Assembly (NCBI GenBank): GCA_035627515.1
Contig: DASPLQ010000012.1
Span: 1,098,331-1,162,330, forward strand
DNA: 64,000 nucleotides
Direction of reading: 5' to 3'
DNA from: Vitreimonas sp.
Lineage (GTDB): Bacteria > Patescibacteriota > Microgenomatia > UBA1400 > PJMF01
Both the position numbers and the translations under genes were made by a program. The notes below the pieces were generated by a model. The model saw only the letters and a program-made list of their open reading frames with translations, was not told where the DNA came from and made no database searches. Shown piece by piece: positions 5,677 to 26,295 of the stretch; the first letter of the stretch is position 1; the number at the start of each line of letters is the position of its first letter.

Positions 5677-5694
5677 TACTAATAAGGAGGCAAA

Positions 5695-6612: not shown

Positions 6613-6689
6613 ACTCTTTAGTTAATTAAGCAAAAAAACCAGGGGGAGGGGTCCTTAAGTGGGCCCTTCCCCAGATAAATTAGGTAATT

Positions 6690-7910
6690 ATGATTTTAAA
6701 AAATCAAGGTGGTAGATTGGTCGAGATTGATAGCGAGAAAGAAGTTCAACAGCTACTCGCCACCCACCAATTCACCATCCCTACTCCTCAAGAACAAGAA
6801 GAATACCGAAAAGAAAAAGAATATCGCTATAAACTAATCACAGGCGTTATCCCTCACCCCGAAGAACAAACACCCGGCAACACAGACTACGAAGTTTACT
6901 TTAGTAGTGTCAATGAAAGTGCTGATGGCTATGGAATGAGTCGTCAACACATCAAGTCGGAGTTGCAAAAGTTGGGTGTGAAGATTTCCGAAGAGTTTAA
7001 ACACCAGAAAATAGGCTTTTTATACCACAGCCCCTATGCTGTTAAGCGTTTGGAGAACCCAATTAAAGTACTTTTCACAATGTTTGAGAGTGACAAGATT
7101 CCTGAAGACTGGGATGAATATTTGCGCCATGTTGACAAAATAATTGTTCCTTCTGAGTGGTGTGCTAATGTTTTCAGAAAAAGAGGATTTTATCCTGAGG
7201 TGGTTCCGTTAGGCTACAACACCAAAGCTTTCAACTACGTAGAGAGAAACGACAAAGAGAAAACGCATGAGCCATTTGTATTTCTCCATTACAACGCATT
7301 CAATCTGAGAAAAGGTTTTACTGAAGTGGCTAAAGCATTTATTAAAGAATTCCAACCTGACGAAAATGTAAAAATGATCTTCAAAACCACGTTGGAGCAT
7401 GCCCCGCTTCCGTTCCCACCCAGCAAATACCCGAATATAGAAGTGCAGTTAGGTAAGGTCAGCGATAAAGAGTTGGCAAAACTATGTGAGAAAGCGGACT
7501 GTTTTGTATTCCCGAGTAGAGGTGAGGGTTTCGGAATAACTCCTCTTGAAGCTATGGCTACTGGATGCAGTGCAATTGTGCCAAATGCCCATGGCATAAC
7601 TGAGTACTTTAATCCTGAGTATATGTACGAGGCCAAAGTTCGTGAAATGTGCCCGGCTGTCTATAGTCGCTACAAAGGCAGAGATGTTGGAAAAATGGTG
7701 ATTTGCGATGAAGATGACCTTGCAGCAAAAATGCGTTATGTAGTTAGCCACCTTGAGGAGTGTCGAGCAAAGGGGAAAGCAGCGTCAGAGTACGTCAAGA
7801 AATATAGTTATGAGGAAACGGCTACTAAGCTCAAGTTGATTTTTGACAACTTAGTCAAAAACAAGATCAAAGACTCGAATAGTAATCAAATTAAATTGGA
7901 GGAAATATGA
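6690..7910 (+). CDS. glycosyltransferase, GT4-type (GT-B fold)
   Basis: C-terminal signature FVFPSRGEGFGITPLEAMATGCSAIVP (E-x7-E motif of Glycos_transf_1). Confidence 0.7.
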   Translation: MILKNQGGRLVEIDSEKEVQQLLATHQFTIPTPQEQEEYRKEKEYRYKLITGVIPHPEEQTPGNTDYEVYFSSVNESADGYGMSRQHIKSELQKLGVKISEEFKHQKIGFLYHSPYAVKRLENPIKVLFTMFESDKIPEDWDEYLRHVDKIIVPSEWCANVFRKRGFYPEVVPLGYNTKAFNYVERNDKEKTHEPFVFLHYNAFNLRKGFTEVAKAFIKEFQPDENVKMIFKTTLEHAPLPFPPSKYPNIEVQLGKVSDKELAKLCEKADCFVFPSRGEGFGITPLEAMATGCSAIVPNAHGITEYFNPEYMYEAKVREMCPAVYSRYKGRDVGKMVICDEDDLAAKMRYVVSHLEECRAKGKAASEYVKKYSYEETATKLKLIFDNLVKNKIKDSNSNQIKLEEI

Positions 7911-8179
7911 AACCAATCGAGAAAACCACTGCTGTAGTTGTTGAAAATGCTAAAGAGAACAGTGTCCAAGAAAAGTTAGTTAAACAACGACCAAGATTCG
8001 CCTACATACACGTAGGCTGTTCGGGACATGCTTTTTATTTGCATGCCAAGCCAAGATCTGGAGAGCCCATCCAGGGCTTTGACTACGAAGGCAATCCATT
8101 AAAAGGTGAAGTTAAGTGTAAGAGTTGTGGTGCAAAAATGAGTCATTTTAAGACTGAAAATATTATTGAATTAAAATAA
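7907..8179 (+). CDS. small Cys/His-containing protein (possible zinc-binding), unknown function
   Basis: 90 aa, CSGH...CKSCGAKM pattern; translationally coupled between two GT genes. Confidence 0.3.
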   Translation: MKPIEKTTAVVVENAKENSVQEKLVKQRPRFAYIHVGCSGHAFYLHAKPRSGEPIQGFDYEGNPLKGEVKCKSCGAKMSHFKTENIIELK

Positions 8180-9318
8180 TGAGTCATACTAAAGCTCAAA
8201 AAACTGGCAAAATTGGTGTTAAATACACTGGTGCTTTTCTAGATTTCTCAGGATACGGAGAAGCTACTAGACATGACATTGGTGCGTTGCATGAAGCTGG
8301 AATAGCTATTCAAACGGAGTACGTCCATTTTACTCATGAGGTTGCTGATTATGGTCGATTGGGCTCGCTTTGCAAACGCCTGCAAAATATTTCTGAGAAT
8401 TACAGAATCAAAATTCTTCATCTCACTCCAAACATTTTTCCTCGTTTTAAAGAAGAGGGTTGTTACATGATTGGTAGGGTCTTCTGGGAAACCGACAAAT
8501 TGCCACCCGACTTTGCTCAAGGTTGTGAGGTTCTTGATGAAATATGGACTGGAAGCGAAACAAATAAAAAAGCGATTGTAAATGCAGGGGTAAATAAGCC
8601 AATCTTTATTATTCCTGAGGCTATTGAAACTACTGTTTTTCCTCCTGAACCATATCAGGAAAGTGTAATTAATGGAAAATTTGCTTTTTATTCTATTTTT
8701 GAGTGGACGACTAGAAAAAACCCCGATGCCCTTTTAAGAGCATATTTTCAAGAGTTTAATGAGCAGGACAATGTATGTCTCATGCTCAAAACCTATGTAG
8801 ATGACTTCACTTCTAACAAAAAGGATGAAATTAAAAGTGAAATAAAAGCTATTATTGCCAGCCTCAACCTCAGTTATCGACCGCCTATTTATTTATATAC
8901 AGACCTTATGGATCGGCATCAAGTGCATCGATTTCATGCTTCTGGTGACTGCTTTATCAGCACAACCAGAGGTGAAGGGTGGGGTGTTCCTCAAATGGAA
9001 GCTATGTTATTTGGAAAACCGGTTATCACTACGCAGTCAGGAGGAATTGCAGACTACTTAACACACGAGGAATCAGCACACATACTTCCTACCTTTCCCG
9101 AAAGAATCACTCACTCCTCGAGAAACTCACAGTGGTACCGCTCAGATCAGAATTGGAGTGGAGTTTTGATTAAAGATGTACGGGAAGCCATGAGAAAAAT
9201 TTACAGTGATGCTGAATACAGAAATAAAATCGCTGAAGGGGGTAATAAGCTTGTCAAAGAAAGATTTAGTCTCAGCGCTGTTGGTGAATTAATGAAATCT
9301 AGACTTGAGGAAATTTAA
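8179..9318 (+). CDS. glycosyltransferase, GT4-type (GT-B fold)
   Basis: FISTTRGEGWGVPQMEAMLFGKPVITT (E-x7-E motif). Confidence 0.7.
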   Translation: MSHTKAQKTGKIGVKYTGAFLDFSGYGEATRHDIGALHEAGIAIQTEYVHFTHEVADYGRLGSLCKRLQNISENYRIKILHLTPNIFPRFKEEGCYMIGRVFWETDKLPPDFAQGCEVLDEIWTGSETNKKAIVNAGVNKPIFIIPEAIETTVFPPEPYQESVINGKFAFYSIFEWTTRKNPDALLRAYFQEFNEQDNVCLMLKTYVDDFTSNKKDEIKSEIKAIIASLNLSYRPPIYLYTDLMDRHQVHRFHASGDCFISTTRGEGWGVPQMEAMLFGKPVITTQSGGIADYLTHEESAHILPTFPERITHSSRNSQWYRSDQNWSGVLIKDVREAMRKIYSDAEYRNKIAEGGNKLVKERFSLSAVGELMKSRLEEI

Positions 9319-9320
9319 AT

Positions 9321-10325
9321 ATGAAGATTTTATACATTTCATGCCATCAAGTGCTCGAATACGACGAAGTTAAGCTTTTTCATGAGCTGGGTTTTGACGT
9401 TTTTTCAACGGGAACCTATGCTTACCCCCACTTCCGACCGGGGATGATTCGCCCTGGTTTACCAGAACTTACTCACTATCCTGAGTTAGAACGATTGGCG
9501 AGTACGATTGTGAGTAGTGGCTATGCAATTCCCTCAGAGCTTATTGAATGGGCTGACACCATCATTTTCATGCATCTACCCGAAGCAATGGAAAAAAATT
9601 GGGAAAAACTGAGACATAAAAGAGTTATTTTTAGATCAATTGGTCAATGTGTTGCACATCAAGAGAGAATTCTGGCTAGGTTGGTAAAAGAAGGTCTTCA
9701 GATAGTACGTTACTCACCTATGGAACAGGAGTTACCGGATTTTGCTGGCTTGAACGCAACTATTCGCTTTTATAAAGATCCGAGCGAGTTTCGAGGTTAT
9801 ACAGGAGAAAATCCTCTAGTAATTAACTTTTCCCAATCAATTTTACAAAGGCAATCGGAGTGCCATTATCAAGAAATTAATCAGATCATGAGTGGTTTCG
9901 ATGCAAAAATATTTGGAACAGGAAACGAGAACTTGGGATCAATGAATGGGGGGCAGGTTTCGTATGAGGAAATGAAACGCCTAATGAGAGAAAGTAGGGC
10001 CTTTATATATGGCGGAACCTGGCCTGCACCCTACACTTTGTCATTAATTGAAGCAATGATGTCAGGAATTCCCGTCGTTGCTCTAGGGAAAAAACACGCA
10101 GAGCTTGATCGAGGACTAAGTTTTTATGAAGTTCATGACATTATACAAAACGGCGTGCACGGGTTTGTTTCCAACGACGTCAGTTACTTAAAGAGCCAGG
10201 TCGAATACTTAATCAACCACAAAGAGACAGCAATTAAGATTGGCGAGCAGGGGCGACAACGCGCAATTGAATTATTTGGCAAAGAAACTATTAAAAACCA
10301 ATGGGAGAGCTTTTTGAAAGGCTAA
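9321..10325 (+). CDS. glycosyltransferase-like protein (GT-B C-terminal domain, degenerate)
   Basis: FIYGGTWPAPYTLSLIEAMMSGIPVVALG resembles the GT4 nucleotide-sugar binding region but lacks the first Glu. Confidence 0.45.
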   Translation: MKILYISCHQVLEYDEVKLFHELGFDVFSTGTYAYPHFRPGMIRPGLPELTHYPELERLASTIVSSGYAIPSELIEWADTIIFMHLPEAMEKNWEKLRHKRVIFRSIGQCVAHQERILARLVKEGLQIVRYSPMEQELPDFAGLNATIRFYKDPSEFRGYTGENPLVINFSQSILQRQSECHYQEINQIMSGFDAKIFGTGNENLGSMNGGQVSYEEMKRLMRESRAFIYGGTWPAPYTLSLIEAMMSGIPVVALGKKHAELDRGLSFYEVHDIIQNGVHGFVSNDVSYLKSQVEYLINHKETAIKIGEQGRQRAIELFGKETIKNQWESFLKG

Positions 10326-10327
10326 TC

Positions 10328-11077
10328 ATGAAAGAACCAATTGTTGCCGGAGTAACCTACCAACTTATGCAAATGGATCCAGAACTGGCTTTATTTGATG
10401 AAGGAAAGTGGGGAGGAACAGAAAGTGAGTTTTTAGCTTTTAATGACGCTGGTGTCGAGATGGAGGTTGGAGAGTTCTTTTACTCGATGGTTCGACTGCT
10501 AAAACCCAATCGCGTACTGGAGACAGGAACACACTGGGGTATTGGAGCTATGTATATGGGTATGGCTCTCAAGCACAATCAAAAAGGGAAGCTAACTACT
10601 ATTGAGTTTTTGCCACCAATCTTCGAGAAGGCCAAGGCTCGAATCGAACAGTTGGGGTTAGGGGAATATGTTGAAAATCTGCTTCAAGATGTGGTAACTT
10701 ATCAGCCTACAGAGAAGTTTCAATTTATATTGTTAGACACTGAGCCACAAACCCGATTTGCGGAGATGGGAAAGTTTTGGGATTCGCTTGATGAAGGTGG
10801 GTTCTTATTTATCCATGATTTGCACCGTCACATGCACCAAATTCCTAATGATGAGCACGGTTTTGCTTGGCCATATGGTCTAGTTACAGACTTTATGCAC
10901 AACCTGGTAATAAATGGAAAAGCTCGACCAATTCATTTTTCAACTCCTCGAGGTCTAACGGGATTTTATAAAGTTAGTCAAGCAGATTACAACTGGAGTC
11001 GAAGTGTTGTCCAATCATCTGTTCCTGGTCACTACCATAGTGGAAATAACATATCTATTGAAAGCAGTAATGTCTAG
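10328..11077 (+). CDS. class I SAM-dependent O-methyltransferase (TylF/MycF macrocin-O-methyltransferase-like)
   Basis: Motif I VLETGTHWGIGAMYMG; ORF track start 10301 overlaps the upstream gene, ATG at 10328 follows its stop. Confidence 0.55.
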   Translation: MKEPIVAGVTYQLMQMDPELALFDEGKWGGTESEFLAFNDAGVEMEVGEFFYSMVRLLKPNRVLETGTHWGIGAMYMGMALKHNQKGKLTTIEFLPPIFEKAKARIEQLGLGEYVENLLQDVVTYQPTEKFQFILLDTEPQTRFAEMGKFWDSLDEGGFLFIHDLHRHMHQIPNDEHGFAWPYGLVTDFMHNLVINGKARPIHFSTPRGLTGFYKVSQADYNWSRSVVQSSVPGHYHSGNNISIESSNV

Positions 11078-12134
11078 AACTGCCCTACTCCCTTCTTCTG
11101 GCGATCCCTTCTTATTAACCTTCTGGTTTGGTCAGTTCCTAAAGGTGTGGCAAAACGAGGTAGATGAGTTGATTATTCATTTAAATGGGTATGCTGAGGC
11201 AGAGGTGGTCGAGTATGTTCGGCAGATGGTATTGTTGAGCCCCAAGGCAAAGTTTATACACACACCCTCAACAGTTACTCATGGAAATTCGATTGATCTT
11301 ATGTTGGATGAGGTAAAAACGGATTTAGTGGTTTTGCTTGAAGAAGATGCCCCAATATTTAAACCTGGAACCATTGACTACTGCTTTAAATACATAGAAG
11401 AACAAGGCTATGAAGTAGTGGGGTCTAAGCGAGGCAGCTGTGCGTTAGAGATCTTAGAGCGGGCAAAAGAAGTGTGGGGCTTGGACTACTCTGGTTATGG
11501 TGATCAGGGGTGCAATTTTTGGCCTTGTTTTCTCTTCACTAAAACCCAAATTTTAAAAGATACTGACAGGAATTTTGACAGTAAACAATGGAAGGCTGGA
11601 ACCTATATTCCCGAGCTTGATTGGACCACTTCTACCGATGTACACGGCGACACCTTCGTTAATACTTCGCTACAACTTCGTGCGAAGAAATGCCGAATAA
11701 AAGAAATCCCACAATATCACTGTTATACCGACGACATGCCAGACTATGAAAAGAAAATGGGGATTTATGATGGTTATGCCCCATGGGTTCACATTGGTTC
11801 TCTCTCAAGTTGTTTTAATGGAGCTTTGGTTGATGATACCAATAGGGCACTGGGTAGAAGATTGGTTGAAGCACCCAAATCGGACTACCCTCTCCAGGCA
11901 AATACGGTAGGGGAGAAGCAAGAGTGGGAAAGAAGATTGGTTTGGCTTTCTATTGCATATTCGGGTTTTCACTCAAACGATTATTTAAGCAAAGAAACCA
12001 AAGACATTCTCAAAGTATTTTCAATTGAGTACGGAAATGCGCTAGAAAAAGCAGTCAGATATTTAGGACTAAATAAGGAGAGGATGTTCCAAAGAATGAA
12101 GATTTACTTGGAATTACTTAATAAATATGTTTGA
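11070..12134 (+). CDS. hypothetical protein in glycosylation cassette (possible glycosyltransferase)
   Basis: ~355 aa, 8-nt overlaps with both neighbours; no motif recognised by eye; ORF-track start 11004 replaced by in-frame ATG 11070. Confidence 0.35.
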   Translation: MSRTALLPSSGDPFLLTFWFGQFLKVWQNEVDELIIHLNGYAEAEVVEYVRQMVLLSPKAKFIHTPSTVTHGNSIDLMLDEVKTDLVVLLEEDAPIFKPGTIDYCFKYIEEQGYEVVGSKRGSCALEILERAKEVWGLDYSGYGDQGCNFWPCFLFTKTQILKDTDRNFDSKQWKAGTYIPELDWTTSTDVHGDTFVNTSLQLRAKKCRIKEIPQYHCYTDDMPDYEKKMGIYDGYAPWVHIGSLSSCFNGALVDDTNRALGRRLVEAPKSDYPLQANTVGEKQEWERRLVWLSIAYSGFHSNDYLSKETKDILKVFSIEYGNALEKAVRYLGLNKERMFQRMKIYLELLNKYV

Positions 12135-12837
12135 CCTCATCGTCACCTGGCCAACCCACTGCGATTATCCTATTTTCAGAAAGTTAATTAGAGAAAATAG
12201 AAAACGATTTGGAGAAGTAATCATCACATTTAGTGATGCAAACAATATCTTTAATAGAGTTGACTTTGTGAAGCAAACAATGAAAAAAGATGATGTTACT
12301 TTCTTGCGAGCTAACTCTAGGGGTGGTGATTGGAGAAATGAAGCAATTCAAGAATCTCTAAAAGAGAGTCAATCCAAGTGGGTTTTGTTTATTGAACAAG
12401 ATTTTATTATCCATAAGCCAGAGCAGTTTTTCTTCAATCTTAATATTGAAATGCCTAAATACGATGTTATTGGTTTTAAAGAAGGAGAGAGATTGCACCC
12501 TGGTTTCTTGTTAATTAGAAGAGAGTGCTTAAATCAGACCTGTCTAGATTTCGGGATAGTACCCAACAAACTTGATCATTTTGGTCTGATAACAAAAGAC
12601 ATTACTCGCCTTGGATTTAAGGTTGGGCTACTTGACGACTTAGGCCTTGAGAGAAAGAAGCACTATTATCACATGAATGGTTTGAGTCACAACCTAACTC
12701 TTATGCAGCAAGGCGAAAAAGTTACCTATCAGCCGGATATGTTCTTAAGTTACCTAAGAAGTTGTGCTCAAGCTGGCATCGAGCTTCCCAGCGACTTCTT
12801 TTTGTACTATCACCGTATGAAAGAAACAAATGCTTAA
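12127..12837 (+). CDS. hypothetical protein in glycosylation cassette (possible GT-A-like)
   Basis: 236 aa; VLFIEQDFII acidic motif reminiscent of a GT-A DxD region; overlapping start/stop coupling. Confidence 0.3.
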   Translation: MFDLIVTWPTHCDYPIFRKLIRENRKRFGEVIITFSDANNIFNRVDFVKQTMKKDDVTFLRANSRGGDWRNEAIQESLKESQSKWVLFIEQDFIIHKPEQFFFNLNIEMPKYDVIGFKEGERLHPGFLLIRRECLNQTCLDFGIVPNKLDHFGLITKDITRLGFKVGLLDDLGLERKKHYYHMNGLSHNLTLMQQGEKVTYQPDMFLSYLRSCAQAGIELPSDFFLYYHRMKETNA

Positions 12838-13924
12838 AGTTTTTGCCGACTTTCATCACGCATCCCTATTACACTCGCTGATCATGGTTTTTGAGGGTAG
12901 ATTTGGTGGTGAGTTATATCGACCAATAGGGATTGAGTGGGCTGAAAAAGGATTTTGGAAAGTATTCGACCACCCTGCTACTCAACAACAGTATTTGGCA
13001 ATCGGCGGCGCGACACCAGATGGAACTAAACCTCTCAACGAAGTAGAAAGCTCAGAGGCCTGGTCAAATAGGATCCCATCTGATCATGTGTACCATTGCA
13101 AAGATATTGATAGTGGTTTTACCAATAAAGCGATCACATTTGATGGCTTTATGTCAATGCCATTTGACTTTGTGATTGCTTCACTACCTCAACACATTGA
13201 ACCATTTCGTAAGCTTTGTGACCTACATCCTAGCAAACCAAAGCTTATTTATCAAATTGGAAATCAATGGAATATTGAACCCCACTTCGCTCACATGATT
13301 AATGGAGTAATGGCATCTGCTCAAGTTGTTCACAATTACCCCGTAAGAACTATTCAATACCATCAAGAGTTTGACCTCAAAACCTTTTACCCACATAAAT
13401 TTGAGGGCACTAATGAGATACCCAAGGAAAAAACAGCTTACAGTTTCATTAACGTACATCAAGACATGCCAGACTACAGTCTCTTTCTCTCCTTAGAGGC
13501 AAGTAGACCAGACTGGAATTTTAAAACTTATGGGGGTCAATGCAGAGACGGATCGATGGATGGCAGTGAGCAGCTGGCTAACAAAATGAGAGAGGCGATG
13601 TTCATTTGGCACGTTAAAGCAGGTGGAGATGGGTATGGTCATGTTTTATACAATGCAGCTGCTATAGGCAGGCCTGTTATTGTTAAAAAATCATACTACT
13701 CTGGCAAACTAGGTGAAGAACTATTAATTGATGGTAAAACGTGCATTGATGTTGACGGTCTAAATTTAGACCAGATTTGGTCTAAGCTAGACCATTATAG
13801 TCAACCTGAGCAGTACATAGCTATGAATGAAAATGTGATTAGTAACTTTAAAGAGAAAGTAAATTTTGATTCAGACGCCCTGAAAATCAAGTCATTTTTA
13901 GATAATTTGTTAGAAATCTATTAA
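12830..13924 (+). CDS. hypothetical protein, possible GT-B-like glycosyltransferase
   Basis: 364 aa; C-terminal GGDGYGHVLYNAAAIGRPVIV resembles a GT-B sugar-nucleotide binding segment. Confidence 0.3.
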   Translation: MLKVFADFHHASLLHSLIMVFEGRFGGELYRPIGIEWAEKGFWKVFDHPATQQQYLAIGGATPDGTKPLNEVESSEAWSNRIPSDHVYHCKDIDSGFTNKAITFDGFMSMPFDFVIASLPQHIEPFRKLCDLHPSKPKLIYQIGNQWNIEPHFAHMINGVMASAQVVHNYPVRTIQYHQEFDLKTFYPHKFEGTNEIPKEKTAYSFINVHQDMPDYSLFLSLEASRPDWNFKTYGGQCRDGSMDGSEQLANKMREAMFIWHVKAGGDGYGHVLYNAAAIGRPVIVKKSYYSGKLGEELLIDGKTCIDVDGLNLDQIWSKLDHYSQPEQYIAMNENVISNFKEKVNFDSDALKIKSFLDNLLEIY

Positions 13925-14054
13925 TTTGCCCAAAACTCCCTTTTTTTGCTAAAGATTGCCAAGGTTTGCGAAATTTCTTTAGCTATCTCCTGTTGCTAAA
14001 CTTATTTTAATGAAACCTTGTGTTGAAGTATTCAATAGGTAAAAGGTAAAAAAT

Positions 14055-14606
14055 ATGGCAGCAACATTCGCATTCGACAGAGATCACGGTACACAAACTG
14101 GCTCACCTACTCGTGGAACCACTACTAGCGCTGGTGTTACTGACGTAAACTGGAAGAATTCCGACACAGAAGCAACTGCGTACTCCGCTGCCCCGATCAC
14201 TGCAGGTAACAACTCTTATGATAATTGGCTTTTTGGTCATTTCTCTGGTACTTACAACCAAATCTCAGCGGGACTTTGGGCTCACACCGCAACGGCATTT
14301 GGTACAGGATTAACTCTAAAGAGCACTCCAGCTTGCACTGGCGATGGTGACCGCTTACTGTATACAACTCCCTCTGCTTCAGCTAACGCTAACTTAACCG
14401 TCGATGCCACCTCAGCAATTGCCATTGGGTCGGGAGTAGCAGTATTTTTCGGCGCAACTGGTCCCTATGCTACAGGCAAAGCCTCTTCAACGACTTCAAA
14501 CCCAGCGTACACCAACTATCTGACTACTCAATTGCAAACATCGGGTAGTGCAGCAGCTGGTGATACAGCAACCGTCACCATGACTTTGCAATACAACGAA
14601 AACTAA
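14055..14606 (+). CDS. Thr/Ser/Ala/Gly-rich virion structural protein (decoration or minor capsid protein candidate)
   Basis: 183 aa, very low complexity in hydroxyl residues (TTTSAGVTD, KASSTTSNPAYTNYLTTQLQTSGSAAAGDTATVTMTL); preceded by the conserved intergenic motif. Confidence 0.4.
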   Translation: MAATFAFDRDHGTQTGSPTRGTTTSAGVTDVNWKNSDTEATAYSAAPITAGNNSYDNWLFGHFSGTYNQISAGLWAHTATAFGTGLTLKSTPACTGDGDRLLYTTPSASANANLTVDATSAIAIGSGVAVFFGATGPYATGKASSTTSNPAYTNYLTTQLQTSGSAAAGDTATVTMTLQYNEN

Positions 14607-14613
14607 GGAATAT

Positions 14614-14853
14614 ATGGAAAAACTAATCTTTAACGCTCAACTCCAAAAAGAAACCACTCACACTCTTGAGGTTGACGATAACAACGAAATTGTAGCTACC
14701 TGCACTGAAACAGGCCGACAACTGAAATTCCCTAACGTTTCTGAAGCAGAATTTGATGTTTTGGTTGCCAAACATAATGAGTCTAATGTTGGTCAAAGAG
14801 CAAAGAAACCTTTATTTGGAGGTGCTACTGAGGAAGCTTCTCAACCCGAATAA
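14614..14853 (+). CDS. hypothetical phage protein
   Basis: 79-aa ORF with RBS GGAA; position only. Confidence 0.35.
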   Translation: MEKLIFNAQLQKETTHTLEVDDNNEIVATCTETGRQLKFPNVSEAEFDVLVAKHNESNVGQRAKKPLFGGATEEASQPE

Positions 14854-14925
14854 CATGCTTGAAGGCTTATCAAAAGGCGTTTAGTCAAAAACACATCGCA
14901 ATGCAATGCGAGAAAGCCCAATACA

Positions 14926-15393
14926 ATGGCAACACAATTCGGTGATAAAAAACTCAAACTTAAATATCTTTTCACAGCATTTTTTGAAGATGGTCATGTC
15001 ATAAGTCAAACTCCGGAAGATGTTTCAACAATAGATCCAGAAAAAAGATCCGCTTTTTTTGATGTACTTGAGTATGAAAAAAAATCAAAATTGATGGCAT
15101 TTAACTTACTTAATCCTGTGCTTAAAGAATATATTGAAGTGAATTTGAATACAGGCGAATTTGATGTTCACGGCATAAAAATCAATATTGCAGATCAAAA
15201 CTTCGAACCCACCGAACCATTAAGACTTGTTTACTTTCGAGAAACTCGTATCGAAAGCGATGTAAAGATGATAGCTGGTCAAAAAGATGATTTATTGGCT
15301 CAAAGGTTTTACGTTAATAATTACTTCATTGGATGGCAAACCACCGTAGATGGTAAGAATGTTCAACGGACTATTGCGTTAGGCGGTACATGA
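14926..15393 (+). CDS. hypothetical phage structural protein
   Basis: 155 aa; overlaps the start of the next gene (ATGA). Confidence 0.35.
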   Translation: MATQFGDKKLKLKYLFTAFFEDGHVISQTPEDVSTIDPEKRSAFFDVLEYEKKSKLMAFNLLNPVLKEYIEVNLNTGEFDVHGIKINIADQNFEPTEPLRLVYFRETRIESDVKMIAGQKDDLLAQRFYVNNYFIGWQTTVDGKNVQRTIALGGT

Positions 15394-17855
15394 AGCAAGT
15401 AGCCACTGGAAGAAACGGGAATAACCTTGTAAATAACGCCACACGTTATAACCCTCTATTTTTTCCCGACCTTCAGTCAGGTTATTCAGCAACCGCTACA
15501 GACTTTGAACAGATCATCCCTTCTACTGGAAAACTTAGAAATCTTAAAGTAAAGATAGATGCAGTTGCTGGCGCAGCTAAAAGCTACACATTCACTGTTA
15601 TGGTTAATGGCGTTGCTTCTTCATTGGCGGTAACCATTTCTGGAGCAACCGACACAAGGGGGTTAGACACTGACGAAATTTCTGTCAGTGCCGGCGATCG
15701 TGTCAACCTTCGAACTACTGCTTCTGGTACCCCTACAGCCACCCCTTCCTCGTGGTCGGTTGAGTATGAATCTGACACCGCACAAAGATTTATAGTTATG
15801 GGTGCATCAGGGGGAAACGTAGATGCGGCTGGCACAAGATATAATGCTCTTTTTCCCCGTCAAAACATTTGGCAGTCTGCCTCCACGACTTATCTTGTAA
15901 GATCTGTAGCCCCTATTGAGGCTACTATTAAATCTTTCTATGTCAATTTAAATGGATCTCCAGGGGCGGGAAAGAGCTATGCAATTTCTATTATGAAGAA
16001 CAACTCGGAAGAGGCTTCTTCAATTGTAACAATTGCCGATGCTGCTACATCTGGAAATGTCACTGGTTTGAGCATCAACGTGGCTCGGGGAGACTATTTC
16101 ACAATAAAGGTAACACCTACGGGCACTCCAACTGCTCGTCAAGTAAGATGGGGTGTTGAATTTCAGCCCGACACTGATGGTGAAAGTTTTATTTCCTCTT
16201 CTACAGATCACTCTTTTGGCACCGACCACTATGCGGGTATGGGAAGTGTTCCCAATGATGGTGGCACTGAAAGTCAAGTCAAGGGTATCGTAGGACCAAC
16301 AGCATACGTAATCAAAGATTTGTACGTTAAATTGTTACTGGCCCCAGGTGCGAGTAAGAGCACCGACGTTTATTTTCGCGTTAATGGATCAAGCACTGCT
16401 CTGTCAGCTTCCATAAGTGGCACCAACACCGTGGGTGAAGACACTACCGACGAAATTACGCCTGCAGAAAACGATGAAATAAACTTTTTCATTGACAACG
16501 TGAATACACCAGCCCACTCGGGTGAGTTAATGAGTGTAATTCAATATATTGCTCCTGGCGGAGGTGATGTCACAACACCTCAAACAATTACAGGTAAAGC
16601 TAGGATAGAGAAAGCGGTAAGTCAAACCGTGACAGGTAAGGCGAGAATTCAAAAAGCAGTAACTCAGACTATTGCCGGTCTAGCCAGAATCACTACCTCG
16701 GTTGCTAGAACTATTAATGGTGTGGCAAACATCAACAATAATACTTTACAAACCATCACTGGCAAGGCGAGGGTTCAGAAGGCAGTAACCCAGACAATTC
16801 AGGGCATAGCCCGCATCACAGTTTCCACCCTCCAAACTATTCAAGGTAAAGCTTCAATTCTTAAATCAACCACCCAGAATGTCCAAGGGGTCGCTCGAAT
16901 TGAAAAAAATGTTACACAGATTGTCCAAGGTGTAAGTCGTATTCAAAAAGCAGTGACGCAAACAATCCAGGGTGTAGCGCGAATCACCGCGTCAGCCTCT
17001 CAAGTCATTCAGGGAAAAGCACGAATCACGGCAAGTACAAGTCAAACGATGCAAGGCAAAGCCAGTATCTTAAAGTCAGTTTCTCGCACTATTGATGGTG
17101 TTGCTTCGATCGTAGCTGGTGCTACTCGTGATATTACAGGTGTGGCCCGCATCACTGCTTCAACTCTTCGCACGGTTACTGGTAAAGCATCGATTCTCAA
17201 AGCTGTCACACAAACGATTCAAGGAACTGCCCGGATTCAAAAGTCAGTTACTCAAACAGTACAGGGCGTTGCCCGGATTGCCAAAGATGTAACCCAAACA
17301 ATTACGGGCAAATCAAGAATTGAAAAGAGCGTGGCACAAACCGTGACGGGCTTAGCTCGAATTGAGAAAGCCGTCACTCAGCTAATTACGGGCTTAGCTC
17401 GAATCACGGCAAGTACAAGTCAAGCGATTCAGGGTAAGGCCCGTATTGAAAAATCAGTAACCCAAACAATTACAGGAAAATCACGCGTTGAAAAATCCAC
17501 AGCGCAGAACATTGTGGGTGTCTCTCGATTACAAAAGGCTGTCAGTCAATTAATTACGGGCTTAGCCAGAATTCAAACCACTCCTACCCAAACCATTCAG
17601 GGGACTTCCCGAATTGAAAAGTCTCAGAGCCAGATCATAACTGGTGTCTCAAAAATTTCTGCTGTTGTTCAAAGAACAATCACGGGTAAAGCTTCCGTTT
17701 TGTCACCTTACCAAACCCAAACTATCTCTGGCAAAGCATACATTTTGAAAAGACGTTGGAACCTCAAGAGGGTTGTAACATGGTATAGTAAAAATACACC
17801 TATTTGGTCTATCAAAACTAATCAAATCTGGTACAAAAGGAGCACAACAGAATAA
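15390..17855 (+). CDS. large repeat-containing fiber/decoration protein (3 tandem ~115-aa domains + ~26 x 15-aa repeats)
   Basis: 821 aa; three paralogous N-terminal domains each ending in ...TPTGTPTA...W..E..D; C-terminal array of xTQTIxGxARIxKxV 15-mers from about nt 16566 to 17760. Confidence 0.6.
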   Translation: MKQVATGRNGNNLVNNATRYNPLFFPDLQSGYSATATDFEQIIPSTGKLRNLKVKIDAVAGAAKSYTFTVMVNGVASSLAVTISGATDTRGLDTDEISVSAGDRVNLRTTASGTPTATPSSWSVEYESDTAQRFIVMGASGGNVDAAGTRYNALFPRQNIWQSASTTYLVRSVAPIEATIKSFYVNLNGSPGAGKSYAISIMKNNSEEASSIVTIADAATSGNVTGLSINVARGDYFTIKVTPTGTPTARQVRWGVEFQPDTDGESFISSSTDHSFGTDHYAGMGSVPNDGGTESQVKGIVGPTAYVIKDLYVKLLLAPGASKSTDVYFRVNGSSTALSASISGTNTVGEDTTDEITPAENDEINFFIDNVNTPAHSGELMSVIQYIAPGGGDVTTPQTITGKARIEKAVSQTVTGKARIQKAVTQTIAGLARITTSVARTINGVANINNNTLQTITGKARVQKAVTQTIQGIARITVSTLQTIQGKASILKSTTQNVQGVARIEKNVTQIVQGVSRIQKAVTQTIQGVARITASASQVIQGKARITASTSQTMQGKASILKSVSRTIDGVASIVAGATRDITGVARITASTLRTVTGKASILKAVTQTIQGTARIQKSVTQTVQGVARIAKDVTQTITGKSRIEKSVAQTVTGLARIEKAVTQLITGLARITASTSQAIQGKARIEKSVTQTITGKSRVEKSTAQNIVGVSRLQKAVSQLITGLARIQTTPTQTIQGTSRIEKSQSQIITGVSKISAVVQRTITGKASVLSPYQTQTISGKAYILKRRWNLKRVVTWYSKNTPIWSIKTNQIWYKRSTTE

Positions 17856-17859
17856 CTAT

Positions 17860-18555
17860 ATGTCATCACGTCGTCAATATTTAGCACAATCAGAACTCGT
17901 AGAGTTCGCAAACATCACCATCGAAGATGCCACAGAGGCCGATGATCAGATTTCTCAAGCGGAAGAGTTAATCGATTCCTATGTTGGTTTTGTCCAACCA
18001 TTTTTTTGCGGAAAATTAGAGGGTAAAGCTTTTGCGGGATCAGCAACATCTATTACTCTAGAGAGTGTTCACCAAAATGCGTATGATGACAATTACTTCA
18101 CCTATTGTTTCGTTGAAATCATTGGTGGGACAGGTGCGGGTCAAAGACAAAAAATTACTGCTTCAACTAAGGCAGGAGTACTAACTACAGAGACATTTTC
18201 AACCCCACCAGACAGTACTTCATTTTATCGTATTTTTCAGTTGGGTAAGTTTCCTCGAGAGAAAGATGTGACTTCCTACAATCGAACAGCACCTACAACT
18301 TACTATAAGAGTATTCCTGAGGCAGTTAAGAGAGCAACTGCCGCACAAGTTGAATATAAGATTGAAATGGGAGAAAAGTTCTTCTCTACAGACTCTAGCG
18401 ACAAAACATCAGAAAGTTTGGGTGACTATTCCTACACTAAAGAGGGTCGTGGTGATCAGGGAATTGGTAATAAATTAATAGCACCTAAGGCAAGAAACTT
18501 ACTCAGAGGATTAGTCGTTAGATTTGGACAATTTGATCTAGAAAACACCATATGA
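17860..18555 (+). CDS. head-tail connector / DNA-packaging gp6-like protein (putative)
   Basis: 231 aa, first gene of the head-tail joining block; position-based. Confidence 0.35.
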   Translation: MSSRRQYLAQSELVEFANITIEDATEADDQISQAEELIDSYVGFVQPFFCGKLEGKAFAGSATSITLESVHQNAYDDNYFTYCFVEIIGGTGAGQRQKITASTKAGVLTTETFSTPPDSTSFYRIFQLGKFPREKDVTSYNRTAPTTYYKSIPEAVKRATAAQVEYKIEMGEKFFSTDSSDKTSESLGDYSYTKEGRGDQGIGNKLIAPKARNLLRGLVVRFGQFDLENTI

Positions 18556-18869
18556 TAAGCCAACTTCAGAACCAGACTGTTACTTTATATTCTAAATCCA
18601 GTTTAGATCGGTATGGTCGTGAAGCGTTTGGAGCAACTAGAACATACAAGGTAAGAATACAAGAAGTTTCTAAATCAAAATTCCTTGGGAACGGCCAAGT
18701 TGTACCAGTTCTTGCAATTGCCTATTTTGCTCCCGAGGTCACAATTAATGTTGATGATCGAGTGGATTACGGAAGCAATAACTATAAAGTATTTGGGAAA
18801 AATGTAGCCTATGGGGCTGACGGAACAGCTCATCACATTAAAGTGGAATTAATCAAATGGCAAATGTAA
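18552..18869 (+). CDS. head-tail adaptor / head closure protein (putative)
   Basis: 105 aa, overlapping coupling; canonical position. Confidence 0.3.
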   Translation: MISQLQNQTVTLYSKSSLDRYGREAFGATRTYKVRIQEVSKSKFLGNGQVVPVLAIAYFAPEVTINVDDRVDYGSNNYKVFGKNVAYGADGTAHHIKVELIKWQM

Positions 18870-19213
18870 ATTTAGACATTAGTGACTTTTTGAAAAAATC
18901 AGGAGACTTGCTGAACAAAGTTATTAAAAGCAGTCCTGAAGCTCTTGAGGTGGTTGCTGATGAGATATTACGACTTTCCCAAAGAGAAGTTCCTCACGAT
19001 GAGGGTGGTCTCCAGAACAGCGGACATGTAGAACCGAGAAGTGAGGAGGTGTTGGTGGGTTACAACAAACCCTATGCTGCTCGGCTACATGAACATCCAG
19101 AATATAACTTCCAAAAAGGAAGAAAAGGGAAATATCTTGAGGATCCAATTAAAAACAATTTAAATATTTTTAGAATGATGTTCTCTCAAGATTTATCAGG
19201 AGCATTTAAATGA
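18857..19213 (+). CDS. head-tail joining protein (HK97 gp10-like, putative)
   Basis: 118 aa; canonical position. Confidence 0.3.
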   Translation: MANVNLDISDFLKKSGDLLNKVIKSSPEALEVVADEILRLSQREVPHDEGGLQNSGHVEPRSEEVLVGYNKPYAARLHEHPEYNFQKGRKGKYLEDPIKNNLNIFRMMFSQDLSGAFK

Positions 19214-19593
19214 GTAGTTTGATAACTGATATTGTCGATTATTTAGATGACCAGGGCATTGGAACCACAGGTACTAATTTATTTGAAGGCTATATTCCTG
19301 ACGCACCAGATACTTGTATTGCTGTGCTGAATACCGGTGGAACCAGGCCTGATCCAGACATTCCTACTAAGTCACCAACCTTTCAGGTATTTATTAGAGC
19401 AACAAGTTTCGCAGCGGGACAATCTAGATTAGACCAGGTGCGAGAAGCTCTTCATAGACAGTCAAATATAGAGTTTGTTACTGACGAAACCTATGTTTAC
19501 TACGTTTTAGCACTTGCAGAGGGCGGTCATGTGGGTAGAGATGAAAATGGAAGAGATTTATTTAGTATTAATTTTAAGGCACTCACCAGATGA
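19210..19593 (+). CDS. tail completion / tail terminator protein (putative)
   Basis: 127 aa; canonical position before the tail tube gene. Confidence 0.3.
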   Translation: MSSLITDIVDYLDDQGIGTTGTNLFEGYIPDAPDTCIAVLNTGGTRPDPDIPTKSPTFQVFIRATSFAAGQSRLDQVREALHRQSNIEFVTDETYVYYVLALAEGGHVGRDENGRDLFSINFKALTR

Positions 19594-19829
19594 TAGAAGA
19601 AGTAAAAAAATTCTATCGTGAGTTACGATGCAAAAATTGCCGGCGCCTACTGGCACAAGAATACCTTCTTGATGGTCGCATCGAAATTAAATGTGGAGCG
19701 TGCAACAGTATTAACTCTTTTGACTTCAAGCATTTGAAGCAATTAAAGAAAAAAAATACTGTGATCGTGCTGGAGAAGAACCCGGGTCTTCCCCAGAATA
19801 CAACTAGTCGGGAGAAAGGAAAAAAATAA
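19590..19829 (+). CDS. zinc-ribbon protein (Com-like CxxC...CxxC)
   Basis: 79 aa, CKNCRRLL...CGACNS four-Cys ribbon followed by a basic tail. Confidence 0.45.
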   Translation: MIEEVKKFYRELRCKNCRRLLAQEYLLDGRIEIKCGACNSINSFDFKHLKQLKKKNTVIVLEKNPGLPQNTTSREKGKK

Positions 19830-19830
19830 T

Positions 19831-20340
19831 ATGGCAGACATTTCTAACGTTAAAGTGGGAGTCTGTAGTGTCACCTTCGGTGGAACTGACTTAGGTCATA
19901 CCAAAGGGGGAGTTGAGGTTACTTACGAACCCGTACACAAAGACGTCATGGTTGATAAATTTGGTGAAACGATTGTTGAGAAATATCTCATTGGTGAGAA
20001 ACTCACTGCTAAAGTTCCTTTGGCTGAGTACACAATCGCTAACCTACGAAGATCCATGCCCCAAGCTACCTTTGCTGGAGCCGCTAACGCCCGGATTACT
20101 CTTGGTGCTAGTGCAGGTCAACGAGCTTCTACTGATGCCCTACAATTGGTGTTACACCCAATTAATGAAGGTACTAGAGCTTTCGACATCGTGTTCCACA
20201 AGGCATATGTCGCTTCTGAGATTGTTCTTAATCATAAAATTGATGAAGAAAAAGTCATCGAAGTGGTATTTGAAGCATTGCTCGACGAATCTAAGTCCGA
20301 TGGTAACTACCTAGGTCTTATTGGTGACTCGACTGCGTAA
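19831..20340 (+). CDS. major tail (tube) protein (putative)
   Basis: 169 aa directly upstream of the chaperone pair and tape measure; size typical of siphovirus tube proteins; no sheath gene present. Confidence 0.5.
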   Translation: MADISNVKVGVCSVTFGGTDLGHTKGGVEVTYEPVHKDVMVDKFGETIVEKYLIGEKLTAKVPLAEYTIANLRRSMPQATFAGAANARITLGASAGQRASTDALQLVLHPINEGTRAFDIVFHKAYVASEIVLNHKIDEEKVIEVVFEALLDESKSDGNYLGLIGDSTA

Positions 20341-20358
20341 AGAAATGGCAATGAGGCC

Positions 20359-20763
20359 TTGAGCCCGCCATTATTAACATATATGAAAAAAATCAATTTA
20401 GAGACACTAGAAAAAGAAGTTGAAATTAAAAAATTACCTATTGGCAAGTATGTTGAAGTGCTAAAAGCTTTGAATAATTTACCAAAAGAAATTTCAGGGT
20501 TAGAAAACATAACTCCTGAAGGAATAATTCAAAGACTTCCTAGCATAATTGCAAACAGCTTTGATGAACTGTGTAAAATAGTTTCTATCGCTACAGATAT
20601 GACTGATGATGAAGTTAAATCTATTAGTCTAGATGAACTAACAGAAATTATTATCACGGTAATTGAAGTAAACAAATTTGCTTCCATCGCCGATCGAGTA
20701 AAAAAAGCGTTCAGCCTAGCACCTCAAAAAACATCGACTATGATGAGTGGATCTGCTGGGTGA
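20359..20763 (+). CDS. tail assembly chaperone (G-like)
   Basis: 134 aa, acidic, immediately upstream of the tape measure region; contains slippery A AAA AAA at 20700-20706. Confidence 0.5.
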   Translation: MSPPLLTYMKKINLETLEKEVEIKKLPIGKYVEVLKALNNLPKEISGLENITPEGIIQRLPSIIANSFDELCKIVSIATDMTDDEVKSISLDELTEIIITVIEVNKFASIADRVKKAFSLAPQKTSTMMSGSAG

Positions 20764-21050
20764 TCGATACTCTAGCTTCTGAATACGGGTGGACCAAAAA
20801 AAGCATCTTAGAAGATGTTTATCTTGACGAACTTCCCCTGTTATTCAAAGCTAGAGAGCGGAGAAAGAACGAGGAACATAAAACTCTCCTGGCGATAATT
20901 CAAAATCCACATGTTAAGAATCCTCAGGAATTATGGCAGTTGTTTAATGCATCAAATGATGATAAAAATGAGTCAAAAGAACTAGATAAGCAAGCTTTTG
21001 CTCTATTTAAGGCGACTATCTCAAAAAATAGCAGCATACTTGTAAAATAA
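20760..21050 (+). CDS. tail assembly chaperone frameshift extension (GT-like), -1 frame relative to 20359..20763
   Basis: Frame -1 is open from the slippery site onward; the ORF-track start (GTG 20760) is probably not used. Confidence 0.4.
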   Translation: MIDTLASEYGWTKKSILEDVYLDELPLLFKARERRKNEEHKTLLAIIQNPHVKNPQELWQLFNASNDDKNESKELDKQAFALFKATISKNSSILVK

Positions 21051-25186: not shown

Positions 25187-25666
25187 ATGAAAAACATTCA
25201 ATCTGAATCTCAACAATATATTCAAATCAAAGGTGAGCTAGAAATCATTTTGGAAAATGTGGTAACTGGCAAGAAACAAGTTTTTAAACAACATAATGTC
25301 ATTACTTCTTTAGCAAAAACTTCCATAGCCATGGCCCTAAGAGGTGATACGAGTAATAACCGGGGAACAATTACGTACTGTGCAGTAGGCACAAACACAG
25401 TTGCTCCCACAGCCGCAGACACCCAATTGGGAGCTGAGTTATTTAGAAAACAGGTCTCTGTGCGATCCAACTCTGCCAACGAGGCAGTTTTCCAAACTTT
25501 CTTCACCACATCTGAGGCGAATGGAACTTTGCGTGAAGCTGGTTTATTTGGATATGACGCTAGCGCTACTCCAAACTCAGGAACTTTATTTTCTAAGATA
25601 GCTATTAACAGAGTGAAAACCTCAAATGACACACTCACATTTAGGTGGACTATAACAATAGGATAA
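25187..25666 (+). CDS. tail tip/baseplate protein (putative)
   Basis: 159 aa; position. Confidence 0.3.
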   Translation: MKNIQSESQQYIQIKGELEIILENVVTGKKQVFKQHNVITSLAKTSIAMALRGDTSNNRGTITYCAVGTNTVAPTAADTQLGAELFRKQVSVRSNSANEAVFQTFFTTSEANGTLREAGLFGYDASATPNSGTLFSKIAINRVKTSNDTLTFRWTITIG

Positions 25667-25675
25667 GGAGTAATT

Positions 25676-26068
25676 ATGGTGCAATCAAGTGCTGTGGTAG
25701 CTGGAACTAACGCAACAGCAGACCAATACAACAAATTAAGAAATGATGCCCTCTTAGGGCTTAAAAGCGTGTCTGCTATTGCAACTGGCGCTGTTGACCT
25801 TTCCATAACAAACGATTGGGACATTACTCTTGATGATGCTTCTACTACCGTTGTATTTTCTAACGCAACAGTTGGTCAATGGTTTCAGGTGACAGCTATT
25901 CAAGATGCGACTGGAGGGCGGCTAATTACCTGGCCCGCAGGAATCAAATGGCCTGGAGGCGTTGCCCCAACTCTCTCTACGGCAGCTAACGCCATCGATA
26001 CGTTTATTTTCAAATGCACCGCTACCAATGTGTATCGGGGTTATTTTGGTGGATTTAACATGTCCTAA
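25676..26068 (+). CDS. tail tip protein (putative)
   Basis: 130 aa; position. Confidence 0.3.
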   Translation: MVQSSAVVAGTNATADQYNKLRNDALLGLKSVSAIATGAVDLSITNDWDITLDDASTTVVFSNATVGQWFQVTAIQDATGGRLITWPAGIKWPGGVAPTLSTAANAIDTFIFKCTATNVYRGYFGGFNMS

Positions 26069-26091
26069 TTATTATTAAAAAGAAAGACAAG

Positions 26092-26292: not shown

Positions 26293-26295
26293 ATT

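Follow-up and report, generated by a model that had tools for sequence, protein, structure and literature searches.

The window analysed here, a 64,000-nt stretch of DNA from a tiny-genome Patescibacteria (CPR) bacterium, contains an integrated temperate siphophage, and the fibre gene examined in this work belongs to that prophage (Table 1). The name 'Vitreimonas' attached to the source was rejected for the host. The first-pass annotation had placed an 821-aa fibre ORF at 15390-17855, and this is a real and intact gene in a single reading frame. Its start codon shares an ATGA with the stop codon of the 155-aa ORF upstream, and only 5 nt separate its own stop from the start of the next gene. 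The identical protein (P0001) is encoded on two contigs, of 1.41 Mb and 38.4 kb. An earlier worry that a frameshift or pseudogene fusion lay behind the Trp-rich tail is dispelled, since both alternative frames are closed past 17700 and at least 14 homologs terminate in 4-6 Trp at the same W-x7 octad spacing. The fibre gene closes a conserved cassette of four genes, in the order p183, p79, p155 and fibre.

Table 1. Coordinates of the fibre gene, its domains and neighbouring prophage features in the window
Feature	Position	Strand	Description
Major capsid protein	5695-6612		P22-like, 305 aa
Block between capsid gene and cassette	6690..13924	+	Three GT4 glycosyltransferases, methyltransferase, weak GT2-like ORF, two unknown ORFs
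p183	14055..14606	+	First cassette gene, 183 aa, Thr/Ser/Ala/Gly-rich, hyperconserved
p79	14614..14853	+	Small cassette ORF
p155	14926..15393	+	Cassette protein, translationally coupled to fibre gene
Fibre gene	15390..17855	+	821 aa, single unbroken ORF
Domain D1	15390..15782	+	aa 1-131, C1q/TNF/BclA-like jelly roll (predicted)
Domain D2	15783..16175	+	aa 132-262, D1 paralog
Domain D3	16176..16553	+	aa 263-388, most diverged of the three paralogs; AF2 strands 265-386
Linker PGGGDVT	16554..16574	+	Gly-rich, joins head module to shaft; pLDDT <50 at residues 391-395
Shaft	16575..17750	+	27 in-register 14-residue units and one shifted unit
C-terminal cap	17751..17852	+	Basic, 34 residues, Trp octad repeat (W-x7): W790, W798, W806, W814
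Head-tail adaptor	17860..18555	+	Enlarged, 231 aa; PHROG 541, E = 1.8e-12
Tail-fibre-like genes	25187-27570		Canonical place after tape measure; PHROG 9017, E = 8e-18; PHROG 5795, E = 3e-32

Searches of Pfam, NCBIfam, PDB and GenBank phages with the fibre returned no match, and in PHROG it matched two families only, both of unknown function (E about 1e-3). No homology to any described head-fibre or decoration family was detected in these five resources, and none of the tail-fibre families in PHROG and Pfam was matched. GenBank phage records also gave no match in tblastn and megablast searches with the fibre, the N-terminal module, p183 and the first 20 kb, and a single-protein scan of GTDB species genomes gave one weak 65-residue match, in an Ottowia chromosome. 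PDB sequence searches with profiles of the N-terminal module and shaft, plus p183 and p155, produced chance-level matches only. The 14-residue repeat of the shaft and the domain combination in which it occurs are both uncharacterised.

The three tandem paralogous domains proposed for the N-terminal half are confirmed, each about 125-130 aa long, by local alignment scores against shuffles (z = 21 for D1/D2, 10.6 for D1/D3 and 8.3 for D2/D3), and all of the motifs quoted for them were found. The AF2 model of this module has a pLDDT of 90.5 and a pTM of 0.89, the latter indicating a fixed packing of the three domains. Structure comparison of the model matched each domain to TNF/C1q/BclA-type jelly rolls, including phage fibre knobs and receptor-binding heads, and the predicted beta-sandwich superposes on members of the C1q/TNF/BclA family. 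As modelled, the module is a series of three tandem C1q/TNF-like jelly rolls within one chain. No Pfam family, C1q and TNF models included, reached threshold in any of the 21 members tested, and the single-chain TNF and Cbln1 trimers and the STIV triple jelly roll align to the model over one domain only. The complete three-domain unit was found in 32 proteins with other C-terminal parts, at the extreme N-terminus in nearly all of them. An alternative N-terminal module of ~380 aa (N2) was also considered as a diverged triple jelly roll, and this was rejected (hhalign probability 2.5%).

The shaft is an uninterrupted array, as had been described, but with a period of 14 residues (42 nt) rather than 15 (45 nt). 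Identity in the protein autocorrelation is 45%, 43% and 46% at lags 14, 28 and 42 as against 5% at lag 15, and the DNA autocorrelation is 0.50 at lag 42 versus 0.22 at lag 45. The 15-mer reported previously, xTQTIxGxARIxKxV, counts the V of the following unit twice; the unit consensus is V/T-T-Q-T-I-T/Q-G-K/V-A-R-I-x-K-S. The earlier estimate of ~26 units at 16566-17760 is revised to 16575-17750, where units 1-27 keep perfect register, starting at aa 396 (nt 16575), and a 28th, offset by one residue, ends at aa 787 (nt 17750). The shaft contains one Gly per 14 residues and has a pI of 12 and a net charge of +45, or about +1.6 per unit, a basic character that is conserved in homologs. Among 1,783 pooled homolog units, the logo gives G7 at 99%, T4 at 85%, R10 at 81%, A/S9 at 95% and I/V/L11 at 99%, and the spacing between units is 14 in 1,369 of ~1,660 intervals. 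The shaft occurs in about 1,200 protein clusters (50% identity) and is without a Pfam, named PHROG family or PDB relative. The AF2 model of the shaft monomer has a regular strand-turn-strand in each unit but low confidence (pLDDT 51, pTM 0.27), and it predicts a unit made up of the strand TQTI, a Gly turn and the strand ARI. Foldseek with this low-confidence model returned generic solenoids only (TM at most 0.3), which we treated as meaningless.

Mean identity between shaft units is 50% at the nucleotide and 48% at the amino acid level, third codon positions are 33% identical, and 37% of identical residues share a codon. These values bear out the earlier view that the DNA copies are old and synonymously diverged, and the third-position divergence alongside a conserved protein points to purifying selection on the fibre. 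TRF identified no 42-nt array in the shaft DNA, just a 14-nt blip, as expected given the diverged units. Of the suggestion that recombination among repeats could vary fibre length, the variation is borne out: unit number ranges widely, from 5 to 36 among 93 homologous proteins, and reaches 44 in IMG/VR loci. For this copy, recent recombination is unlikely, given that no exact DNA repeat within the shaft is longer than 24 nt. In 93 proteins the shaft is joined to other N-terminal parts, including ConA/LamG-like, Cip1-like, GH18+CBM and phosphoesterase domains, and in two loci (L011 and L018) it is encoded as its own ORF.

Uncultured siphophages of ~40 kb carry the cassette in their head/neck module. 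Its first gene, p183, is found in >1,521 clusters (80-95% identity), unnamed and unassigned in Pfam; at least 90% identity is found in 115 of 183 alignment columns, and p183 proteins are 73-85% identical in loci where the other genes are 30-60% identical or unrelated. Kinship of p183 to either N-terminal module was rejected (probability <1%). Homologs of p155 are present in 45 of 47 related loci at 28-42% identity, and an ORF with the 14-residue repeat occurs in 28 of the 31 IMG/VR loci with sufficient sequence downstream of p183. Throughout the loci compared, the cassette precedes the genes for adaptor, head closure and tail terminator, and in none of them is it found downstream of the tape measure or Dit gene. 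The proposal of a head or decoration fibre, originally made from gene position, is partly supported: the gene lies between those for the major capsid protein and the head-tail adaptor, in the head module beside capsid or connector genes as are head fibre and decoration genes, and its homologs keep the head-module position in L001, L004, L005, L008, L009 and L010.

Homology of the 231-aa adaptor protein to its family is confined to residues 146-218. The W-x7 cap and an adaptor of the type found in the window occur together in six of six loci, the N-terminal arrangements of which differ, and none of about 20 other loci pairs such a cap with such an adaptor. By these sequence comparisons, cap type, rather than the N-terminal module, tracks the connector lineage, and the N-terminal module is the exchangeable part. 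This co-variation makes the enlarged adaptor a candidate docking partner for the Trp cap.

We put the chances at about even that the fibre is an accessory virion fibre of the prophage, most likely seated on the head or neck and not at the tail tip. Anchoring would probably be by the C-terminus, because phages of the lineage with these connector genes retain the Trp cap but exchange the N-terminal module. As cap type follows the connector lineage while syntenic phages exchange the N-terminal module, the Trp-octad cap, possibly with the help of p183 and p155, may fix the fibre to the virion. The shaft could then serve as a rigid spacer with a length set by the number of units, and its cationic charge would favour contact with anionic cell-surface polymers. 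Judged from its fold class, the lectin-like N-terminal head may contact host surface glycans reversibly, and such contacts could make encounters more frequent ahead of the commitment to infection by the canonical tail-tip proteins. Several points weaken this interpretation. Common descent combined with N-terminal shuffling could give the same co-variation without contact between cap and connector; conventional phage, adenovirus and reovirus fibres have their anchor at the N-terminus; trimeric capsid cement (KHP40 gp16, Pam1 cement) is built from jelly rolls of this fold class too; and in L004 and L005 the fibre gene does not adjoin the adaptor gene.

The opposite polarity, in which the triple jelly roll forms a pseudo-trimeric, cement-like base on three-fold or quasi-three-fold sites of the capsid, the shaft points outward and the Trp cap is a distal sugar-binding tip, would agree with the extreme N-terminal location of the module in nearly all of its carriers, which is that of usual fibre anchors. 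The gene also comes after the block of capsid genes, like gene 8.5 of phi29, and aromatic repeats are frequent carbohydrate binders. We nevertheless consider this arrangement rather unlikely, as the same N-terminal module is found beside sequence-unrelated capsid proteins (P22-like and of 305 aa here, of 674 aa and after the portal gene in L001), and it is the cap type that tracks the connector lineage. Moreover, L008, a syntenic relative with an adaptor 58% and a tail tube 61% identical to those in the window, retains the shaft and Trp cap but has an unrelated ConA-like module in place of the jelly rolls (hhalign probability 2.5%). A location on the tail or baseplate, as a side tail fibre or main receptor-binding protein encoded in the head module, appears improbable. 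The lectin-like, CBM and glycosidase domains carried on homologous shafts are typical of receptor-binding proteins, but the cassette is invariably placed ahead of the tail genes, separate tail-fibre-like genes occupy the canonical place, and no tail-fibre family in PHROG or Pfam is matched.

It is very improbable that the product lies outside the virion, as a moron-encoded repeat protein that is secreted or displayed on the cell surface, or that the gene is a decayed fusion. The composition of the shaft resembles that of bacterial surface repeat proteins, and Foldseek listed S-layer and autotransporter solenoids that were not significant. Against this, no signal peptide is evident at the N-terminus when the sequence is read by eye, and the gene is translationally coupled inside a late structural operon where a promoter and terminator scan (5500-21000) gave signal counts equal to those of shuffles; the intact frame, conserved tail and purifying selection also argue against decay.

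Phage head fibres and decoration proteins are non-essential projecting appendages thought to help adsorption, and in T4 Hoc the C-terminal domain provides the anchor while the adhesive domains project. Proteins of this class (phi29 gp8.5, the S. aureus P68 head fibres described in PMC6795507, T4 Hoc, T5 pb10 and phage L Dec) are likewise encoded beside capsid or connector genes. These proteins are built from alpha-helical supercoils, Ig domains or an OB fold with a beta-helix and have no sequence or family match to the fibre, and the cationic beta repeat of 14 residues, the triple C1q-like head and the Trp-octad cap are each absent from all of them. The adenovirus fibre, reovirus sigma1 and PRD1 P5 resemble the fibre in pairing a jelly roll of the TNF/C1q class with short beta repeats whose turn residue is invariant, and the invariant Gly/Pro turn and alternating apolar positions of the triple beta-spiral are found here as G7, A/S9 and I/V/L11. 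The period is 15 or more in those proteins and exactly 14 in 27 consecutive units here, so the analogy to a 15-residue, adenovirus-type shaft fails as stated. Triple beta-spiral fibres carry one C-terminal jelly roll per chain of a homotrimer, whereas three tandem N-terminal copies are present in one chain here, and the shaft is followed by just the 34-residue Trp-octad tail in place of a C-terminal globular knob.

BclA and collagen-like proteins of the Bacillus exosporium, giant viruses and phages also combine a fibrous repeat with a C1q-like domain, in their case at the C-terminus, but the fibre lacks GXY collagen repeats, has the reverse domain order and carries the domain in triplicate in one chain. 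Monomeric beta-rolls with 12-15-residue coils, such as the Lolium perenne ice-binding protein and insect T-x-T antifreeze proteins, share the ~14-residue period, Gly turn and T-x-T strand, and the shaft of one homolog gave a weak, sub-threshold Pfam match to 'Grass antifreeze beta roll' (E = 3e-4). They differ in that homology is absent, the fibre shaft is highly charged and its AF2 monomer is not confident; as a beta-roll, the 28 coils of the fibre would stack an Arg ladder at a spacing of 4.8 A.

To our knowledge, almost nothing is known about host recognition by phages of CPR bacteria, which are very small and often episymbiotic hosts. The shaft family and p183, with about 1,200 and >1,500 clusters, mark a large group of uncultured phages, and the fibre and p183 are concrete candidates for the adsorption apparatus of this group. 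Both the cationic 14-residue repeat and the Trp-octad cap may represent new fibrous protein folds, and the pattern of module swapping offers a natural blueprint for fibre retargeting.

The glycosyltransferase block immediately upstream of the cassette prompts the idea of a putative glycosylation. In BclA and Mimivirus fibrils, sugars are attached by dedicated enzymes. In common with the virion glycosylation systems of Che8-type mycobacteriophages, chloroviruses and Mimivirus, and with glycosylated repeat adhesins (SRRP/Sdr with GT4 enzymes), GT4 and methyltransferase genes lie here within a late structural operon beside genes for Thr/Ser-rich structural proteins. In a cluster F mycobacteriophage, glycosyltransferases were taken to imply capsid glycosylation (PMC11256854). 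In contrast to virion glycosylation systems, homologs of the block are found in only 6 of the 47 related loci (L008, L010, L011, L027, L028 and L036), so that it is not supported as a constant companion of the cassette; other related loci bear different sugar or sulfate enzymes, including an APS kinase, a sulfotransferase and a nucleotidyltransferase. These, together with the GT4 glycosyltransferases and methyltransferase here, are the candidate modifying enzymes. A joint interpretation, improbable as a whole, would unite the fibre and p183 in a head or neck appendage that is coated with glycans and particular to a large group of uncultured Patescibacteria phages, in which late-operon enzymes O-glycosylate the Thr-rich cationic shaft, the Thr/Ser-rich p183 or both. 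The polarity would be inverted: the enlarged adaptor would take up the Trp cap, and the C1q head, an exchangeable pseudo-trimer within a single chain, would form the distal end. The fold of the 14-residue unit would be a fibrous one not seen before. Modification of the virion by the adjacent glycosyltransferases, if it does occur, would mean that virion glycosylation is not confined to actinobacteriophages and giant viruses.

The protein encoded by this gene is best classed as a phage accessory fibre. It joins a triple C1q-like head in one chain to a cationic beta repeat of 14 residues and a Trp-octad cap, all three uncharacterised. The 821 codons of the gene are uninterrupted, its ATG and the stop of the preceding 155-codon ORF overlap, and the downstream gene begins 5 bases past its own stop; the gene is genuine, intact and strongly constrained. 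The window genes form a single array from terminases to integrase, and promoter-like or terminator-like sites between 5500 and 21000 are no commoner than in shuffled sequences.

Features of the prophage and its host flank, in window coordinates
Feature	Coordinates	Strand
Small and large terminase, portal, minor head protein, scaffold		+
P22-type capsid protein	5695-6612	+
Three GT4 glycosyltransferases, methyltransferase, weak GT2-like ORF, two unknown ORFs	6690-13924	+
p183	14055-14606	+
p79	14614-14853	+
p155	14926-15393	+
Fibre	15390-17855	+
Shaft array of the fibre	16575-17750	+
Head-tail adaptor	17860-18555	+
Head closure, neck, tail terminator proteins		+
79-aa ORF	19590-19829	
Ig-type tail tube, tape measure, tail-tip proteins		+
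Tail-fibre-like genes	25187-27570	
M23 peptidase	28264-29361	+
Region of integrase and isoleucyl-tRNA synthetase, with host flank	30051-64000	
Integrase	30051-31082	+
Isoleucyl-tRNA synthetase	34342-37164	

The three tandem paralogous domains proposed in the first-pass annotation are borne out. The N-terminal 390 residues comprise three segments (D1 to D3) whose local alignments give z values over 200 shuffles of 21 (D1/D2), 10.6 (D1/D3) and 8.3 (D2/D3), and the motifs quoted for them are present. Searches of Pfam, NCBIfam and PDB sequences gave no family covering this module. A confident AlphaFold2 model derived from 21 aligned members of the family (pLDDT 90.5, pTM 0.89) contains three beta-sandwich domains, and so high a pTM suggests that the three are arranged in a fixed way. 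When compared by Foldseek with predicted viral structures, each domain superposes at 1.5-2.7 A and 20-31% identity on C1q/BclA-like ends of giant-virus and phage collagen-like proteins; for the STIV triple jelly roll, and for TNF or C1q trimers engineered as single chains, alignment to the module spans one domain only. The triple jelly roll is also found without the 14-residue shaft at 10001-11554 of locus L007, on an unrelated contig with a family A DNA polymerase and a 1,822-aa protein, and is thus common to different phage types.

A C-terminal array is present as first described, although it repeats every 14 residues (42 nt) and not every 15. Self-identity of the protein is 45%, 43% and 46% at lags of 14, 28 and 42 versus 5% at lag 15, while that of the DNA is 0.50 at lag 42 versus 0.22 at lag 45. 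From residue 396, 27 units run in perfect register, followed after a one-residue shift by a 28th that ends at residue 787, and Gly occupies position 7 in 27 of the 28. The view that the copies are diverged also held: mean identity among units is 50% for DNA, 48% for protein and 33% at third codon positions, no exact DNA repeat exceeds 24 nt, and TRF reports no array. The units are old. Pooling 1,783 homolog units gives the logo T/V-T/S-Q/R/K-T-I-T-G-K/V/L-A/S-R-I/V-x-x-T/S, with conservation of 99% at G7, 85% at T4, 81% at R10, 95% at A/S9 and 99% at I/V/L11. With a pI of 12, the shaft carries a net charge of +45 across 392 residues, and homologous shafts average +1.6 per unit.

In a single-chain AlphaFold2 model of the shaft (pLDDT 51, pTM 0.27), every unit forms a four-residue strand, a Gly turn and a three-residue strand; this low-confidence model had no meaningful match among PDB structures, and a profile sequence search for solved structures returned no relative. 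The shaft is possibly a homotrimeric beta-spiral or beta-helix, or possibly a monomeric two-sheet roll of 14-residue coils. The latter is the fold of the grass ice-binding protein, to which one shaft homolog has a weak, sub-threshold Pfam match. We lean towards an oligomer, because a monomeric roll would stack the Arg ladder and because the monomer model is poor.

Within the final 34 residues, Trp occurs at 790, 798, 806 and 814. A check for a frameshift had been called for in this Trp-rich tail past 17760. A frameshift is ruled out, since the remaining two reading frames are closed across the tail and the W-x7 spacing, with 4-6 Trp, forms the end of at least 14 homologs; this stretch thus represents a conserved element, the Trp octad repeat.

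A word-seeded search recovered 131 relatives of the fibre protein, and a profile search run exhaustively over 1.84 billion representatives yielded 1,221 clusters at E <= 1e-3 (327 at E <= 1e-30), among which there were no named proteins and some proteins of up to 3,670 residues. The complete three-domain unit is present in 32 proteins, nearly always at residues 1-385 and with different C-terminal parts, and the shaft in 93; only four other proteins join both. The two halves of the fibre travel independently. Most shaft carriers open with a ConA/Cip1-like module of ~380 residues, for which kinship with the jelly-roll module was ruled out (hhalign probability 2.5%), and shaft carriers may additionally contain Laminin_G_3, GH18 plus CBM_4_9, phosphoesterase or Gly-rich domains. 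Unit counts range from 5 to 36 among shaft proteins and reach 44 in IMG/VR loci. In some related IMG/VR phage loci, L011 (11873-14912) and L018 (11878-13162), shaft and cap constitute their own ORF, starting with the conserved peptide MARLG.xQPFKPL, after a separate globular-domain ORF, an arrangement implying that head and shaft would assemble non-covalently. Several repeat ORFs in related IMG/VR loci (L012, L028) appear short or seem to follow long gaps under the standard code; split genes, assembly errors or recoded stop codons may account for this.

The fibre is part of a conserved cassette in a large uncultured phage group infecting Patescibacteria. This cassette, in which p183, a small ORF and p155 precede a protein with 14-residue repeats, recurs in six related loci (L001, L004, L005, L008, L009 and L010), always in the head module, and the head genes of cassette phages vary from P22-type capsid plus scaffold to HK97-type protease-capsid fusions and Mu-type protease plus cement. 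The conserved position lends some weight to the earlier suggestion of a head fibre, an identity that is plausible but unproven. More than 1,521 clusters of p183 were found, all of ~183 residues and 80-95% identical, with 115 of 183 columns at least 90% identical; the genes beside it are 30-60% identical or unrelated between loci. It occurs in 41 IMG/VR loci, with a repeat ORF within 6 kb in 28 of the 31 that have at least 2.5 kb of downstream sequence, and 45 of the 47 loci have p155 homologs. Deposited phage genomes yielded no match to p183 or the N-terminal module. The p183 protein is Thr/Ser/Ala/Gly-rich, lacks annotation, greatly exceeds every adjoining phage gene in conservation, and is common to phages whose capsid genes are unrelated. 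Separate tail-fibre-like genes are present in the tail module, whose compact tip region encodes small tail-fibre-like proteins of 159, 130 and 424 aa, followed by the M23 peptidase, probably a lysin or tail-associated hydrolase.

The protein family of the downstream gene co-varies with the type of fibre cap. The W-x7 cap closes the fibre in each of the six loci whose adaptor is of the window type (41-61% identity; the window, L008, L010, L011, L021 and L027). At the N-terminus these loci vary, having the triple jelly roll, a module of the ConA-like kind, a third type or a split gene. A second downstream-gene cluster pairs with 'TVL'-type fibre ends, and the jelly-roll module is found alongside unrelated capsid proteins. 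The co-variation is as anticipated for a fibre in which the Trp cap would be the virion-specific end and the N-terminal modules would be exchangeable ligand-binding heads, a polarity opposite to that of most tail fibres and akin to that of T4 Hoc. C-terminal anchoring of this kind and the conventional orientation appear about equally probable. Common descent of the cap combined with shuffling of the N-terminus would produce the same co-variation without any contact, so the polarity is something we only infer. The adaptor itself has 231 aa, about twice the usual size, with adaptor homology confined to residues 146-218 and an extra domain at 1-145.

A further proposal is that operon-encoded enzymes glycosylate the virion, as in mycobacteriophages, whose virions are modified by operon-embedded glycosylation enzymes. 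The GT4 and methyltransferase block (~7 kb) lies inside the late operon between capsid gene and cassette, as it does in the five relatives of the connector lineage whose upstream sequence is visible, and other cassette phages encode GT2, methyltransferases, APS kinase, sulfotransferase and nucleotidyltransferase nearby. The shaft (25% Thr+Ser) and the likewise Thr/Ser-rich p183 would be the candidate substrates. In a cluster F mycobacteriophage, glycosyltransferases have been taken to imply capsid glycosylation (PMC11256854). Only 6 of the 47 loci, however, carry homologs of the window's block, and we regard such glycosylation as unlikely. The homologous block is confined to the closest lineage. 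At 8266-10017 of L005, a nucleotidyltransferase-like protein, APS kinase and sulfotransferase-like protein are encoded directly upstream of the repeat fibre, which hints at sulfated modifications.

The window comprises a prophage and host flank on a contig of 1.41 Mb, with a mean window GC of ~41%. 'Vitreimonas', the label in the public record, is rejected as the host: the isoleucyl-tRNA synthetase shares 67-72% identity with proteins of Patescibacteria, Woesebacteria, Pacebacteria and Paceibacterota, and by this sequence match the host is a Patescibacteria/CPR bacterium. Microgenomates-type CPR prophages were first reported in 2019 (PMC6509639). A further run yielded a 38.4-kb contig that also encodes the fibre protein and may be the free phage genome. 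The 79-aa ORF that lies after the tail terminator gene and before that of the tail tube has a weak Com-type zinc-ribbon match in the public annotation of the identical contig.
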